A stretch of 10,521 nucleotides of DNA from the UHGV virus genome UHGV-0062500; one strand, given 5' to 3'. This DNA is from a virus. Position 1 is the first letter of the stretch. Every line of letters begins with the position of its first letter. The position numbers and the translations under genes were made by a program. Positions 6,566 to 10,521 of the stretch are shown one piece after another. The notes below the pieces were generated by a model, which was not told where the DNA came from, did no database searches, and saw only the letters and a list, made by a program, of their open reading frames with translations.

Positions 6566-6593
6566 TTTGTATTCCTCCGTAGTTGATAGTTGT

Positions 6594-6622
6594 ATAGTAC
6601 CACAGAGGAACGGTCTTGTAAA
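6594..6622 (-). promoter_or_regulatory. Sigma70-type early promoter upstream of the 175-aa gene
   Basis: Minus strand aGTTGTTTACAa-17 nt-TGgTACTAT (extended -10): -35 at 6622-6617, -10 at 6599-6594. The flanking 24-nt and 12-nt blocks are identical to the promoter at 8729-8757. Confidence 0.6.
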
Positions 6623-6625
6623 CAA

Positions 6626-6928
6626 CTAAAAGAAACTTCTTTCACAATTTTTTCCACTGAACCAGGCGCTCACTGCTTTCTTAGTCTCAGGAGCAGTGTT
6701 ATCCATAAACCATTCAAAGGCAGCCTTTTTATGATTCTGGAGGGCTTCTCGGGCTTTAATCTGCTCACGGTCTATTAACACTAACATATGAGCCTTTCTT
6801 GTCACCAGGGGCTTTTTATGATTTTTTGAATATTCCCAATCATTTGTCCATCGCATCGTTGTTGCGAATTGAAGTACAGCTTCTTTAATCTTAGTTTCGT
6901 AAATTTCACGAGCCTTTGAGTATAACAT
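6626..6928 (-). CDS. Hypothetical protein, about 100 aa
   Basis: ATG at 6928-6926 is preceded by GGAGG (spacing 5); the track ATG at 6940 has no SD. TAG at 6628-6626. Confidence 0.6.
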   Translation of the reverse strand: MLYSKAREIYETKIKEAVLQFATTMRWTNDWEYSKNHKKPLVTRKAHMLVLIDREQIKAREALQNHKKAAFEWFMDNTAPETKKAVSAWFSGKNCERSFF

Positions 6929-7010
6929 CACTACCTCCATTTACCGGTTTAATTCTAGTCATCTTTTTAATGGCAGTCCATATAATCTATTTCTGAACTT
7001 CCTTTTTGTC

Positions 7011-7729
7011 TTAGGATTCTTCTAAATGTCTTTTCTGAAAAGTTGATACCATACTACGATACGGTTCATTTGGATATCCGTGTTTTATAGCTTCCTTTGT
7101 AAATTTTCTCCATCCATATTTAGTTTCTTTCCAAAGCTCGAATAATTCATCTTCATACTGCCATATAGTTAAATGAGAACGCTTTGCAGCTTTAATTCCA
7201 TTAATATGCTTTTCTTTTACTGTAGGATTACTTAGTTTCTTTTTAATAATATTACTAACTTTTCTAACAAAAACTGGGTCCTTATATCGTTGCGAAGTTT
7301 TTATTGAAGTGTTTAATTTAGCTTCCGGCGTGGATGTGACCTCTTTCATCTTTTTCTTCATATGTTGTATATGATTAGGATTTTTCCATAAATTTATAGA
7401 ATGCTTTTTGCATTTTATCCTAGTTTCATCTGCAACCTTTCCTCCTTCACCCCCGTATGACAGGTTAACACAGTTTTTTCCATATTTCAATTTACCTGCC
7501 ATGATATATAATATTTCAGCTTGTACCATTTTATCATAATTATCAAAAACTTCTAAAACCGTTTTTGATAATATGTGGTCATTTGACACTTTTACACGTT
7601 CTATATAATTTCCACTACCAACATACGAATCATTGATGTTATTAGTTATATGTCGACCATAATAGTATTTCTTAATACCTGTCTTTAAATTTAATATTTC
7701 AGTTTTATAGATAGTAAAATATTTTTCAT
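7011..7729 (-). pseudogene. Seg-like GIY-YIG homing endonuclease, about 239 codons, disrupted by a 1-nt frameshift at an A5 run immediately after the start codon
   Basis: ATG at 7729-7727 overlaps the ATPase stop (ATGA) but that frame stops after 12 codons. The adjacent frame is open for 46 codons (7730-7590) with no ATG/GTG/TTG and joins the 192-aa track ORF. With six instead of five A at 7726-7722 the protein would read MKKYFTIYKTEILNLKTGIKKYYYGRHITNNINDSYVGSGNYIERVKVSNDH..., GIY-YIG-like and alignable to I-TevI NNKVYVGSAKDFEKRWKRH. The C-terminal half has repeated NUMOD-like basic motifs. Locally AT-rich, with no SD before the GTG at 7589. Confidence 0.45.
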
Positions 7730-8694
7730 TTTAATAATACCGTTTCAGCAATTTCTTCCCAACCGTTTTTGTCGGTCATAATAAAGTCAGCAAGATAAAG
7801 CGCAGTACGCAGTGAAACATTGCGTAAACGATTAACATTGACTTTCATCCATGATAATGCTTTATAAGTTTCTTCATCAGAAAGACCGCGCTTTTGCATC
7901 ATGTCAGTTGAAAGAATAACATCTTCAACCCTGACCATAATTTCTTCATTAGTGTGAACACCCAAATCCAAATAAACTGAGCGGGACACTAATGCTTGTA
8001 AATGTGGAGCAAGTTTAGTACCACGGTCTAATTCGCGGTCAATGTCAACGTTTGTGATAAAAACAATCGTTCCTTTAAATTCAAACTCACGCTCAATGCC
8101 TTTTTCTTCTAAGTAAGAAGATGCAGTGCTCCAGCAGACTTTACGGGTCTCTCCAGTGTCCAGAGCAGCTTTCAGAAGATTAAGAATGTCCATATCAGAG
8201 AAAACATCCACATCATCAATCAAAAGGACAGAATTCTCTTCACGATTATTCCAAAGCTGCTCATAAAGACCGATACCAGAGATTTTACCATTAATGCTTT
8301 TATACTCAATGTATCCAATATCATTTGCTTTATTTAAAGCTTTATCTAAAGAATACGTTTTACCAATGCCTGCTGCTCCTGAGATAATTAATGAACGAAT
8401 GTTTCCGTTAATAATACCATTCGTCATCATTCCCATAACATTAAATCTTTTATTAATGCGGGTTTTCATATCTTCATATGATTCTTTAACTTCTTCAACT
8501 TTTACACCATCATATGAAATGTCTGATTTGTAAACCCAAACACCGCGACGCTTACCGTCAATTTCAACAAAAACTTTACCATCTCCTTGCGCATCTACCG
8601 GAGCATTATCTGGGAACCATTCGCCTAAGAGCTCAAAAGTTCCAGAGATTTCTTTACCGAAGTAAATACCCTTATTGATAGTTACAGTTTTCAT
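7726..8694 (-). CDS. P-loop (AAA+-like) ATPase, 322 aa
   Basis: Track ORF starts at 8811 and reads through a terminator and promoter. The real start is ATG 8694-8692 with GGAG 7 nt upstream. Walker A ISGAAGIGKTYS, Walker B VLLIDDVD, sensor-1-like FITNVD; about 100-aa N-terminal domain before the P-loop. Confidence 0.8.
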   Translation of the reverse strand: MKTVTINKGIYFGKEISGTFELLGEWFPDNAPVDAQGDGKVFVEIDGKRRGVWVYKSDISYDGVKVEEVKESYEDMKTRINKRFNVMGMMTNGIINGNIRSLIISGAAGIGKTYSLDKALNKANDIGYIEYKSINGKISGIGLYEQLWNNREENSVLLIDDVDVFSDMDILNLLKAALDTGETRKVCWSTASSYLEEKGIEREFEFKGTIVFITNVDIDRELDRGTKLAPHLQALVSRSVYLDLGVHTNEEIMVRVEDVILSTDMMQKRGLSDEETYKALSWMKVNVNRLRNVSLRTALYLADFIMTDKNGWEEIAETVLLK

Positions 8695-8728
8695 TTTATT
8701 CTCCAAATCCGTATCAGTTGATAGTTGT

Positions 8729-8757
8729 ATAGTACCATAAAGCTTTATGCTTGTAAA
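8729..8757 (-). promoter_or_regulatory. Sigma70-type early promoter upstream of the ATPase gene
   Basis: Minus strand TTTACA (8757-8752) - 17 nt - TGgTACTAT (8734-8729), with an A/T-rich block upstream. Sits just downstream of the terminator, followed by the GGAG SD and ATG at 8694. Confidence 0.6.
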
Positions 8758-8777
8758 CAACTTTGTGAAAAATTTTT

Positions 8778-8806
8778 GAAATAAAAAGGGAGCCCGAAGG
8801 CTCCCT
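8778..8806 (-). terminator. Rho-independent terminator after the nucleotidyltransferase gene
   Basis: Minus-strand RNA GGGAGCC-UUCG-GGCUCCC (7-bp GC-rich stem, UUCG tetraloop) followed by UUUUUAUUUC, starting 2 nt after the TGA at 8810-8808. Confidence 0.8.
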
Positions 8807-8807
8807 A

Positions 8808-9821
8808 TCATTTATAATAACTTCGATGGTTTTCAAGATAGACCTTCTCAAGGAAGTCATCCCAGAAACTCATGTCTACTTTTTGTTGCATACCGTTCTT
8901 AGAAGCTTCAGTAGATGCTGCTTCTACTTGATCGACCACATCTTCCAAAAACTCTTGGACTGTTTTAAATGGATGTTTACCCAACTTCACGTCGAGAATA
9001 AATGGAGCATCTTGGAGTGGATAAATCAAGTCGCCAGTTTTGTAAATTTCCAATAGTTGAAGTCCACCACGACAAGCATGGCTCAGAGCTTTCCAGTCAA
9101 TACCTTCATTGGCTTCAGCCTTACGAGCACGTTCACCATATTCAGCATCTAATTTGTTCAGTGACTGCTTAAGCTCAATAAGAGAAAGCGTTGTCTGATA
9201 TTTACGACCCAACACAGTGTAGAACGTTTGTGGGCCTGTTTTCTCATGATTATGGAACACCCATTCACAGAATTCGTTTTCTGGAAGACGATGCTTAATA
9301 TCTTCAACTTTAGTGCGACGCTGCTTAATAGAACCATCTTCTTGGTAATCAACCCATTGCTCAGGGATTTGATTAACTACTTTCAATACATCACGTAATG
9401 CAGCCAAACGAGAACCCTTGACACCGTATTTAGAAGCTTGCTTACGGACATATCCTAAATATGATTTCATGTTAGTCGTATAAAAACGAGAACGGTTGTC
9501 TTGAATAAACTTCCACACATCAGGCAAATCAGATTTAACCACTAGTTCAGGTGGAGTGTGAAGCATATCTAATGCTACAGTTTCACCATCTGCTGCTAAT
9601 TTAAAGAAATATTTAAGACTGTATAGTTCATGGTCAATATCATCTTTAGTGTTTTTAGATGATGTGTTGTTAGTGTTTTTACTCATATGCTCTTTAACAT
9701 TTCCGATAAGAATATCGCGAGCAGAAGGAACAAAGATTTCTTTAAAATCTACATCAGATTCTGGGGTAGAAGTTCCATAAAGATGACTACCAAAATAGCT
9801 TTTCATTACTGTTTTCATCAT
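8808..9821 (-). CDS. Predicted Pol-beta-superfamily nucleotidyltransferase, 337 aa
   Basis: ATG at 9821-9819 overlaps the upstream TGA. N-terminal YFGSHLYGTSTPESDVDF is a canonical minimal-NTase motif (G-S-x10-D-x-D), with a candidate third acidic residue in TVALDML. C-terminal about 250 aa is helical. Intrinsic terminator immediately downstream. Confidence 0.75.
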   Translation of the reverse strand: MMKTVMKSYFGSHLYGTSTPESDVDFKEIFVPSARDILIGNVKEHMSKNTNNTSSKNTKDDIDHELYSLKYFFKLAADGETVALDMLHTPPELVVKSDLPDVWKFIQDNRSRFYTTNMKSYLGYVRKQASKYGVKGSRLAALRDVLKVVNQIPEQWVDYQEDGSIKQRRTKVEDIKHRLPENEFCEWVFHNHEKTGPQTFYTVLGRKYQTTLSLIELKQSLNKLDAEYGERARKAEANEGIDWKALSHACRGGLQLLEIYKTGDLIYPLQDAPFILDVKLGKHPFKTVQEFLEDVVDQVEAASTEASKNGMQQKVDMSFWDDFLEKVYLENHRSYYK

Positions 9822-10521
9822 TCAGCCTTATATTCAATAACAGGACATACTTTAGCTTTACGAGCTTTTAAAAATTCAACGATAATCGATTTCTTGGGTT
9901 GAATAGGAGGTAAACCTTTATACGCCCTATCAATATTTTCTACGTGTAAAGCATAATCCTTTTTCCATTTATAATCTTTATATTTTTCATGCAAATGTGC
10001 AGGAATAACAAATGAACCGATAATAAGTAAAACAACCAAAAGCGCAAGTATAAATGCTGATGGAAGAAGAGTCCATAAACTACCGAAAATAAGCCAACGT
10101 TGTAGGCTTTCTGCACAAATAATTGTTAGCCCTACGAGTATAGCACACCCAAAAATAGAAACGAAAAATGTAGGAATGGCAATAGACCAAAAATATGCGC
10201 ATAGTGTCTTAGGTCGTTGCCATTCATCGTTAAACAGTTTGAATAATTTATAGTGCCAAGAGTTTTCATTAATAATCATAATTATCCTTTCATTGAAGGT
10301 GTAACAGTTGTTAATCATAGCTTCAGCTTCTGATTTTGATAATGAAATTTCTCCATTGTTTTGACGAATAGAAATAAAATCCGGATGACGGTCACCACCA
10401 GCTTTTAAAACACACATATAAGTATCAGTTTCACCTTCAATATTTGAAATGATTGAAGCAGTTCCACATGAATGCGGTTTTTGATAAATCAATACAGCTT
10501 TTCTTCCGCCATTTGACTGCT
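9818..10521 (-). CDS. Predicted membrane protein (two transmembrane helices), C-terminal 234 codons; 5' end outside window
   Basis: The track start at 10492 is TTG and the frame is open to the window edge, so the gene is 5'-truncated. Hydrophobic segments YFWSIAIPTFFVSIFGCAILVGLTIICA and LIFGSLWTLLPSAFILALLVVLLIIGSFVI. TGA at 9820-9818 overlaps the NTase ATG. Confidence 0.6.
   Translation of the reverse strand, partial: QSNGGRKAVLIYQKPHSCGTASIISNIEGETDTYMCVLKAGGDRHPDFISIRQNNGEISLSKSEAEAMINNCYTFNERIIMIINENSWHYKLFKLFNDEWQRPKTLCAYFWSIAIPTFFVSIFGCAILVGLTIICAESLQRWLIFGSLWTLLPSAFILALLVVLLIIGSFVIPAHLHEKYKDYKWKKDYALHVENIDRAYKGLPPIQPKKSIIVEFLKARKAKVCPVIEYKAE

Follow-up and report, generated by a model that had tools for sequence, protein, structure and literature searches.

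The reversal of PrrC damage by polynucleotide kinase (Pnk) and RNA ligase 1 (Rnl1) of bacteriophage T4 is a textbook example of RNA repair serving as phage counter-defence, and wobble-excising nucleases such as RloC have been proposed to defeat repair by these two enzymes. The present work concerns NrdC.11, a nucleotidyltransferase (NTase) of the DNA polymerase β (Pol-β) type encoded in a 10,521-nucleotide stretch of the virus genome UHGV-0062500; this whole stretch is referred to below as the window. It is proposed, with a probability of about 0.6, that NrdC.11 adds nucleotides to RNA 3' ends in RNA repair and has a counter-defence role.

The described enzymes closest to NrdC.11 belong to the RlaP family. 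The idea that RlaP in general restores lost nucleotides in RNA repair is credited to Burroughs and Aravind (2016) by the papers that cite them. It was reported by Iyer et al. that the distribution of RlaP mirrors that of RNA ligases in jumbo phages, and restoration of nucleotides before ligation was predicted in connection with RloC-type nucleases (PMC7824862); excision of the wobble nucleotide by RloC has been described (PMC2610378). Carruthers, Fatma and Huang reported that two Pseudomonas enzymes, PfRlaP and PaRlaP, label only RNA among Escherichia coli macromolecules, require a 3'-OH, add one or two nucleoside monophosphates (NMPs) to RNA, favour the 5' half of a cleaved-tRNA mimic and are needed for restored aminoacylation of over-damaged tRNA (bioRxiv 10.64898/2025.12.29.696909). 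In the same study, RlaP was proposed to be an antidote to "smart" ribotoxins, e.g. RloC, that remove nucleotides after cleavage, and T4 NrdC.11, labelled there an RlaP "of unknown function", was placed in cluster 5 of the RlaP sequence similarity network (SSN).

The gene, its NTase nature, its assignment to RlaP and the RNA-repair hypothesis are all already in databases or in the literature. What is added here is modest: the recognition of a distinct long subfamily with a β insert, its tandem arrangement with canonical RlaP in bacteria and its presence in a phage kinase-phosphatase/Rnl1 cassette. An earlier note on the window, made from the letters alone, had described a membrane protein and a Pol-β-type NTase as a separate transcription unit ended by a strong terminator and had suggested a possible counter-defence activity. 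Its observations were largely right, and its interpretation was right in kind and under-informed; the core claim of a Pol-β-type NTase with a possible counter-defence role stands.

Results

Identity of NrdC.11

The window was found to be a Tequatrovirus (T4/T2-like) segment extending from gene 49 to nrdC.11, with all long open reading frames (ORFs) on the minus strand. The ORF list includes endonuclease VII, the NrdC thioredoxin and the nrdC.1-nrdC.11 series. Megablast of the window returned 893 phage records, mostly of Escherichia, Shigella and Yersinia Tequatrovirus, with identity of up to ~96-98%.

The nrdC.11 coding sequence occupies 8808..9821 (-) and encodes 337 aa from its first ATG; a second ATG (9818) comes immediately after it and is the annotated start, giving 336 aa, in most database copies. 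The product was 97-99% identical to the copies in T4-like phages, its best protein match being a phage T2 protein at 99% identity. It matched PF10127 (RlaP, "RNA repair pathway DNA polymerase beta family") with a score of 42.3 bits (cut-off 23; E 9.3e-11), the match spanning residues 7-135 and profile positions 23-142 of 249, and phrog_388 'nucleotidyltransferase' of PHROGs with E 4e-136. A precomputed PF10127 match was present in 240 of 240 NrdC.11 homologues among the matches listed. NCBIfam and PADLOC gave no match for the NTase, nor for the membrane protein, the y05I fragment or NrdC.10 described below.

T4 NrdC.11 (NP_049709, T4p095; nrdC.11 at 55435-56445, RefSeq product nucleotidyltransferase) and its T2 and RB-phage orthologues are the same gene as the window ORF. 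In the RefSeq record of phage AR1, the order is nrdC.10, nrdC.11 ("nucleotidyltransferase"), a 153-aa gene, a 173-aa gene and mobD.1. On the basis of sequence homology, the ORF at 8808-9821 (-) is assigned to T4-type NrdC.11, a member of RlaP (PF10127). The protein, which the earlier note had left unplaced, is therefore placed by the profile search and by the published SSN.

Active site, conservation and fold

The N-terminus of NrdC.11 reads MMKTVMKSYFGSHLYGTSTPESDVDFKE..., in which G11-S12, ten residues and D23-V-D25 form an exact GS-x10-DxD motif, as had been claimed. This signature (9747..9791 (-)), comprising the GS loop and the first two metal-binding carboxylates, was supported by the sequence itself, by conservation in homologues and by alignment with canonical RlaP. 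D63 (9633..9635 (-)), located on strand 62-68 of the AlphaFold2 (AF2) model, is the probable third catalytic carboxylate according to conservation, the model and its correspondence to D72 of canonical RlaP. Because these residues aligned with the SDYD motif and the invariant D72 of canonical RlaP, D23, D25 and D63 likely constitute the metal triad.

The NrdC.11 family was collected by a scan of 1.84 billion representatives, with clustering at 50% identity. It comprised 3298 clusters when the threshold was E <= 1e-3 and 835 when it was E <= 1e-30, and nearly all of them were full length at ~300-350 aa. In 146 representatives with 33-55% identity, G11, S12, Y132, H248, R251 and P268 were invariant, and conservation of D23, D25, D61, D63 and D85 reached 90% or more. 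Among 126 homologues that formed a second set, S12, D23, D25, D61, D63, D85, Y124, Q128 and Y132 were invariant, as were R138, R231, D242, K244, H248, R251 and K279. Loss of the catalytic acidic residues among homologues, one of the outcomes that would have spoken against the earlier claim, was thus not observed in either set.

The AF2 model of NrdC.11 (predicted local distance difference test score, pLDDT, 89.6; predicted TM-score, pTM, 0.75) consisted of an α/β NTase core up to about residue 110, followed by helices, a β insert and a helical C-terminal region that ended in a long helix, 317-336. The description of a helical domain after the NTase motif was accordingly correct as regards the helices and the long C-terminal helix, but it had missed the five-strand β insert at ~155-209. 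This insert (9192..9365 (-), residues ~153-210) has strands at 155-159, 165-169, 185-192, 196-203 and 206-209 in the model, and its residues W176, L179, P180, E183, H184, Y201, V203, C204 and G205 were nearly invariant in the 126 homologues. The defining features of the Pol-β superfamily, namely hG[GS] with [DE]x[DE], a third carboxylate on a neighbouring strand and the α/β fold, were all found in NrdC.11, and comparison of structures and profiles placed the protein in the NTase fold. Searches of the Protein Data Bank (PDB) by sequence with the protein, the family profile and the canonical RlaP profile gave no relevant match. By fold, the nearest solved structures were Hailong HalB (PDB 9dbh/9dbj) and the NTase-like protein 3c18, with ~115-127 residues superposed at 9-16% identity.

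Relation to canonical RlaP

A profile of canonical RlaP was built from 14 short RlaPs encoded adjacent to NrdC.11-type genes; one such adjacent RlaP scored 261.6 bits across the full Pfam model. When the NrdC.11-type profile was compared with it by hhalign, only 120 columns were aligned (residues 7-133, probability 55%, E 1.2e-4). Within them, GS corresponded to GS, S22-D23-x-D25 to SDYD, D63 to the invariant D72, and D85...P90 to the invariant E94...P99. Homology over the full length of the canonical ~250-aa RlaP, including its C-terminal helical domain, was found neither by Pfam nor by hhalign. In silico removal of the β insert moved the end of the Pfam RlaP match from profile position 142 to 176; together with the modelled strands and their conservation, this marks the insert as specific to the NrdC.11-type subfamily. 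Since the alignment was limited to the N-terminal part, the NrdC.11-type proteins are, as judged by these profiles, a deeply diverged, longer (~310-340 aa) RlaP subfamily, in agreement with the separation of SSN cluster 5 from cluster 1a.

Gene neighbourhoods of NrdC.11-type genes

The neighbourhoods of distant NrdC.11-type homologues (33-47% identity) were surveyed. Seven viral loci (L074-L078, L080 and L084), belonging to two lineages that are 58% identical to each other, carried an RNA-repair cassette in the order 380-aa HD plus P-loop kinase (PF01966 + PF13671), 112-aa ORF, Rnl1-type ligase (PF09511, 7.5e-25) and NrdC.11-type NTase. The fusion of an HD phosphohydrolase with a P-loop polynucleotide-kinase-like domain would be an end-healing enzyme with an architecture unlike that of T4 Pnk. 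A small HD phosphohydrolase gene lay directly 3' of the NTase gene, overlapping it or separated by tens of bases, in eight phage-like contigs (L006, L068, L072, L081, L083, L088, L090 and L091); in L090, genes for RtcB and an Rnl2-type ligase were also found within 4 kb. In one phage locus, a metallophosphoesterase gene was found at the position of the downstream HD gene. Plausibly, the 3'-OH required by the NTase is generated by its HD or metallophosphoesterase partner, and in T4 this role could be filled by the 3'-phosphatase of Pnk.

The cellular survey covered 80 loci from Desulfobacterales, Nitrospirota, Alphaproteobacteria and others, some of them on Mb-scale contigs. A canonical ~250-aa short RlaP was encoded nearby in ~24 of the 80, nearly always directly downstream, in tandem and on the same strand (for example L096, L099, L112-L114, L122, L123, L129, L147, L148, L157, L159, L161, L164, L168 and L169). 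RtcB was present within 6 kb in 10 of the 80 loci, and Ro60/TROVE in 2-4. Such pairs of paralogous NTases within a single repair operon suggest that the two enzymes divide the labour or assemble into a heteromer. The partner genes found in the phage and cellular loci are those typical of systems that heal and seal RNA ends.

Transcription unit of nrdC.11

An intrinsic terminator (8777..8806 (-)) begins 2 nt past the nrdC.11 TGA. It consists of an 8-bp G+C stem with a UUCG loop and a U-tract, AGGGAGCC-UUCG-GGCUCCCU followed by UUUUUAUUU, and confirms the GC-stem/UUCG terminator recognised earlier: the folding energy was -18.4 kcal/mol (z -3.5), and 0 of 200 shuffled sequences folded as well. 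In five relatives (L007, L010, L011, L015 and L017), a hairpin likewise occupied this position, with an identical UUCG loop and five different stem sequences. Because the stems differ while the loop is conserved, this covariation is consistent with terminator function.

The promoter that had been noticed after the terminator was also found. A σ70/T4-early-type promoter for nrdC.10, TTTACA-17-TACTAT with TG, is located at 8757..8729 (-) as a motif match, and the same site is present in AR1; it matches the T4 early-promoter consensus. A simple promoter scan of the window was uninformative alone (22 sites against 16 +/- 4 expected). The promoter call was made because of the TG-extended match, its conservation in AR1 and a duplication: the promoter and its downstream leader lie within a 62-nt block at 8716-8777 of which a second copy is found at 6581-6642, 2135 bp apart. 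This early-type promoter block precedes two successive transcription units, the second copy standing ahead of the next downstream unit.

At the other end, neither a terminator nor a strong promoter-like site was found between mobD.1 and nrdC.11 in AR1. The nearest good promoter match there (TTTACA-17-TATAGT with TG, 10/12) lies upstream of mobD.1, two genes beyond the membrane gene, and the nearest upstream terminator follows rI.-1. As far as gene order and motifs indicate, the terminated unit in relatives probably comprises no fewer than four genes, namely mobD.1, the y05I-like gene, the membrane-protein gene and nrdC.11, and its 5' end lies outside the window. Of the proposal that the membrane protein and the NTase form a separate unit, the well-defined 3' end was therefore upheld, whereas the 5' end was displaced beyond the window, with at least two more genes in relatives.

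In a 98.5%-identical phage (L008, ~7010-7060, 3' of the nrdC.11 stop), the terminator has lost its 3' arm and the nrdC.10 promoter its -35 part, and half of the hairpin is joined to the -10 region. In this phage, nrdC.11 and nrdC.10 may be co-transcribed.

Genes upstream of nrdC.11

The gene preceding nrdC.11 (9818..10282 (-)) encodes a 154-aa membrane protein, as indicated by phrog_944 'membrane protein' (1.1e-50), by an AR1 homologue and by two long hydrophobic segments with Kyte-Doolittle hydropathy >1.6, in agreement with the two transmembrane helices that had been read from the sequence. Its stop overlaps the nrdC.11 start as ATGA at 9818-9821, again as had been stated, and from this arrangement nrdC.11 appears to be translationally coupled to the small membrane-protein gene.

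The claim that the membrane gene starts outside the window was not borne out. The gene has its own ATG at 10282 with an AAAGGA Shine-Dalgarno sequence, and its AR1 equivalent (ar1_100, 153 aa) begins at the equivalent ATG. In AR1, the preceding y05I-like gene stops two bases before the membrane-gene start in a different frame. In the window, the 3' part of the y05I-like gene (10283..10521 (-); PF24448 T4_y05I_C, 7.3e-14) is fused in frame to the membrane gene. In an alignment with AR1, 8 bp (TTAAGTAT) flanked by direct TTAA repeats were missing from the window at ~10311-10315. These 8 bp were present in 443 of the 443 phage records matching the stretch, in which the membrane gene stands as a gene of its own. 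Since the deletion removes the y05I-like stop, the two ORFs form one frame that is open to the window edge. The deletion may reflect genuine variation, a slippage mutation or an error of sequencing, and the open-ended membrane frame is, judging by these alignments, a peculiarity or error of the window sequence.

The pairing of the membrane gene with the NTase gene was found to be common and not obligatory. In T-even-like loci (NrdC.11 identity of at least 52%), the order membrane gene, nrdC.11, nrdC.10 was common, and a homologue of the membrane gene was located upstream of nrdC.11 in most of the T-even-like loci. Beyond the closest relatives, the membrane protein was only 23-50% identical, and T4-type genomes lack it, mobD being found in T4. 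Where NrdC.11 identity fell below ~50%, neither the membrane gene nor nrdC.10 stood beside the homologue. The membrane protein was rejected as an obligate partner of NrdC.11 on account of its absence near homologues of <=50% identity and beside nrdC.11 of T4.

Other features of the window

The first gene of the next unit, nrdC.10 (7726..8694 (-)), encodes a P-loop/AAA-like ATPase of unknown function (phrog_1250, 5.5e-166; weak AAA Pfam matches; 322 aa in AR1). It adjoins nrdC.11 only in T-even-like phages and is separated from it by the terminator and the promoter. Its product was likewise rejected as an obligate NrdC.11 partner, because it is absent near homologues of <=50% identity and because the terminator and promoter intervene. 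A 361-aa ORF (7726..8811) that runs over the nrdC.11 stop was not accepted as a real gene, since it traverses both signals. The true nrdC.10 start is almost certainly the ATG at 8694, to judge from its GGAG Shine-Dalgarno sequence and the length of the AR1 protein.

A 192-aa ORF with a GTG start (7011-7589 (-)) lies between nrdC.9 and nrdC.10, where AR1 has segE. It gave no Pfam match, and its similarity to the homing-endonuclease family phrog_314 was limited to the middle of the profile (positions 228-423 of 574). This ORF is probably a free-standing homing endonuclease that is truncated or in decay. Downstream of gene 49, a 65-nt direct repeat was found at 638-702 and 851-915, the copies being spaced by 213 bp and sharing 83% identity. 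Each copy overlaps the ends of small ORFs, and the C-terminus of their products reads ...MIRQYKRLH(R/Q)MFYNT.

Discussion

In the proposed role of NrdC.11, D23, D25 and D63 would hold two Mg2+ ions, broken RNA would be bound in the cleft that separates the NTase domain from the helical domain, and one or a few NMPs would be transferred from nucleoside triphosphates (NTPs), untemplated, to its 3'-OH. The most probable substrate would be the 5' half that is left when a host anticodon nuclease cleaves a tRNA in its anticodon loop. The resulting 3'-OH end would be passed to the phage 5'-P/3'-OH ligase (Rnl1), which would reseal a full-length anticodon loop. The outcome would be the rescue of tRNAs stripped of nucleotides by host nucleases, complementing T4 Pnk and Rnl1. 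The gene itself would be the last of an early or middle polycistronic unit ending at the UUCG-loop terminator. That the substrate is RNA, how many nucleotides are added and that anticodon nucleases are involved is inferred, whereas the identity, fold, conserved active site, terminator, promoter and repair-gene context of homologues were observed. An RNA end is pointed to because tested family members act on RNA 3'-OH and because the gene neighbourhoods of homologues contain Rnl1, RtcB, HD-kinase and Ro60 genes; the view that the substrate could not be inferred from sequence was thus too pessimistic. In T4, the nrdC.11-mobD.3 segment can be deleted in the laboratory (PMC9825161), which is consistent with an accessory role.

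Several observations weigh against this proposal. Homology to canonical RlaP was detectable only in the N-terminal ~130 residues, and the C-terminal half and the β insert could give a different substrate. The characterised RlaPs sit in SSN cluster 1a and NrdC.11 in cluster 5 (bioRxiv 10.64898/2025.12.29.696909), and the frequent position of the long form beside canonical RlaP in bacteria argues for a non-identical activity. In the window and in T-even phages, nrdC.11 adjoins a membrane protein gene and a P-loop ATPase gene, with no RNA ligase, kinase or HD gene adjacent. The best solved structural match is HalB, an oligo-dA synthase of a defence system, and the fold alone does not discriminate between functions. 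Finally, a literature search under several spellings of nrdC.11 found no functional study of the T4-type enzyme, and no genetic link of nrdC.11 to PrrC or RloC resistance was found reported.

Some of these observations would suit an enzyme that acts on RNA 3' ends for another purpose, such as the rebuilding of tRNA CCA ends or the tailing of host or phage transcripts to alter their stability. Such a role would share the fold, family and biochemistry of the proposed one; it would fit the lack of linkage of T-even nrdC.11 to pseT or rnlA and the division of labour suggested by bacterial co-occurrence with canonical RlaP. It is nevertheless considered rather unlikely, since ligases (Rnl1, Rnl2-type and RtcB) and end-healing enzymes are the recurrent context of distant homologues and no Pfam match to CCA-adding enzymes or poly(A) polymerases (PF01743) was obtained even at E <= 10. 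The similarity to HalB raises a further question, whether NrdC.11 is a synthase of nucleotide signals or oligonucleotides, of the CD-NTase or Hailong HalB kind, that interferes with or mimics host immune signalling and has no action on RNA ends. The HalB match was confined to the generic NTase core, PADLOC gave no match, no cGAS/CD-NTase was present among the PDB fold matches, and no effector-like neighbour was found in the window or in AR1. Considering also that homologues cluster with RNA ligases, RtcB, Ro60 and HD phosphoesterases, and that the tested members of PF10127 act on RNA 3'-OH, a signalling synthase appears improbable.

The same neighbourhoods, which point to RNA repair, make it about as improbable that a protein or small molecule is the nucleotide acceptor of NrdC.11, as it is for MNT antitoxins, which AMPylate HEPN toxins, and for aminoglycoside and lincosamide NTases, with the C-terminal helical bundle binding this acceptor. 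All structural matches of this kind were weak (Foldseek E > 1e-3; identity 5-16%). Neither a Pfam-level relation to the MNT or aminoglycoside families nor a HEPN domain with Rx4-6H was found in NrdC.11, no HEPN partner gene was found nearby, and RlaP labelled only RNA from E. coli extracts (bioRxiv 10.64898/2025.12.29.696909). The dispensability of the T4 segment mentioned above could also be taken to mean that nrdC.11 is an inactive or decaying remnant. The ORF is intact and of full length, the catalytic and ~30 further residues are invariant in homologues down to 33% identity, the family has 835 clusters at E <= 1e-30, and the gene is kept in hundreds of T-even-like genomes; decay is therefore extremely improbable.

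Repair of RNA 3' ends remains the favoured function of NrdC.11. A more specific and speculative extension is that long RlaP differs in function from its characterised paralogues, having its own β insert and an unrelated C-terminal half, and that it works alongside canonical RlaP and RtcB in bacteria and in T-even phages is the missing third tRNA-repair enzyme, restoring the nucleotide or nucleotides excised by RloC-type nucleases so that a functional tRNA can be regenerated by Pnk and Rnl1. This is put forward tentatively, as something less probable than the general role in RNA repair. If NrdC.11 does restore a lost nucleotide, a further step of the arms race would be added for the best-studied phage, and a function would be assigned to a gene family whose phage and bacterial members number in the thousands.

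Compared with the known T-even loci, the window has nrdC.11 in the same position as T4-type phages, between nrdC.10 and the mobD/rI region, with the same downstream terminator and promoter. Like T2- and AR1-type phages, it has the membrane-protein and y05I-like genes upstream of nrdC.11, whereas T4 has a mobD homing endonuclease there; the 8-bp deletion that fuses these two ORFs distinguishes the window from T4/T2-like phages. HalB, which makes an oligo-dA defence signal, and 3c18 have no sequence-family relation to NrdC.11 and a different genomic context.

Common to PfRlaP, PaRlaP and NrdC.11 is an NTase module at the N-terminus in which GS, SDxD, a third Asp and, ahead of SP, a conserved acidic residue are present; in all of them a helical domain and a long C-terminal helix come after this module. 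Distant NrdC.11-type genes also resemble RlaP genes in lying near RNA ligase or RtcB genes in many genomes, neighbours that were not found in the window or in its T-even relatives. In contrast to the characterised RlaPs, NrdC.11 is ~80 residues longer, contains the conserved β insert and has a C-terminal half that is not profile-alignable; the two types, often encoded side by side in bacteria, are probably not functionally identical. The T4 pathway of Pnk/PseT and Rnl1, which counters PrrC, and the wobble-excising nuclease RloC lie in the same proposed arena as NrdC.11, the reversal of anticodon-loop damage. T-even nrdC.11 is not adjacent to pseT or rnlA, whereas in some phages the kinase-phosphatase, Rnl1 and the NrdC.11-type NTase are joined in one cassette. 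The 3'-OH product of RlaP is the substrate required by a 5'-P/3'-OH ligase such as Rnl1 of the T4 pathway.

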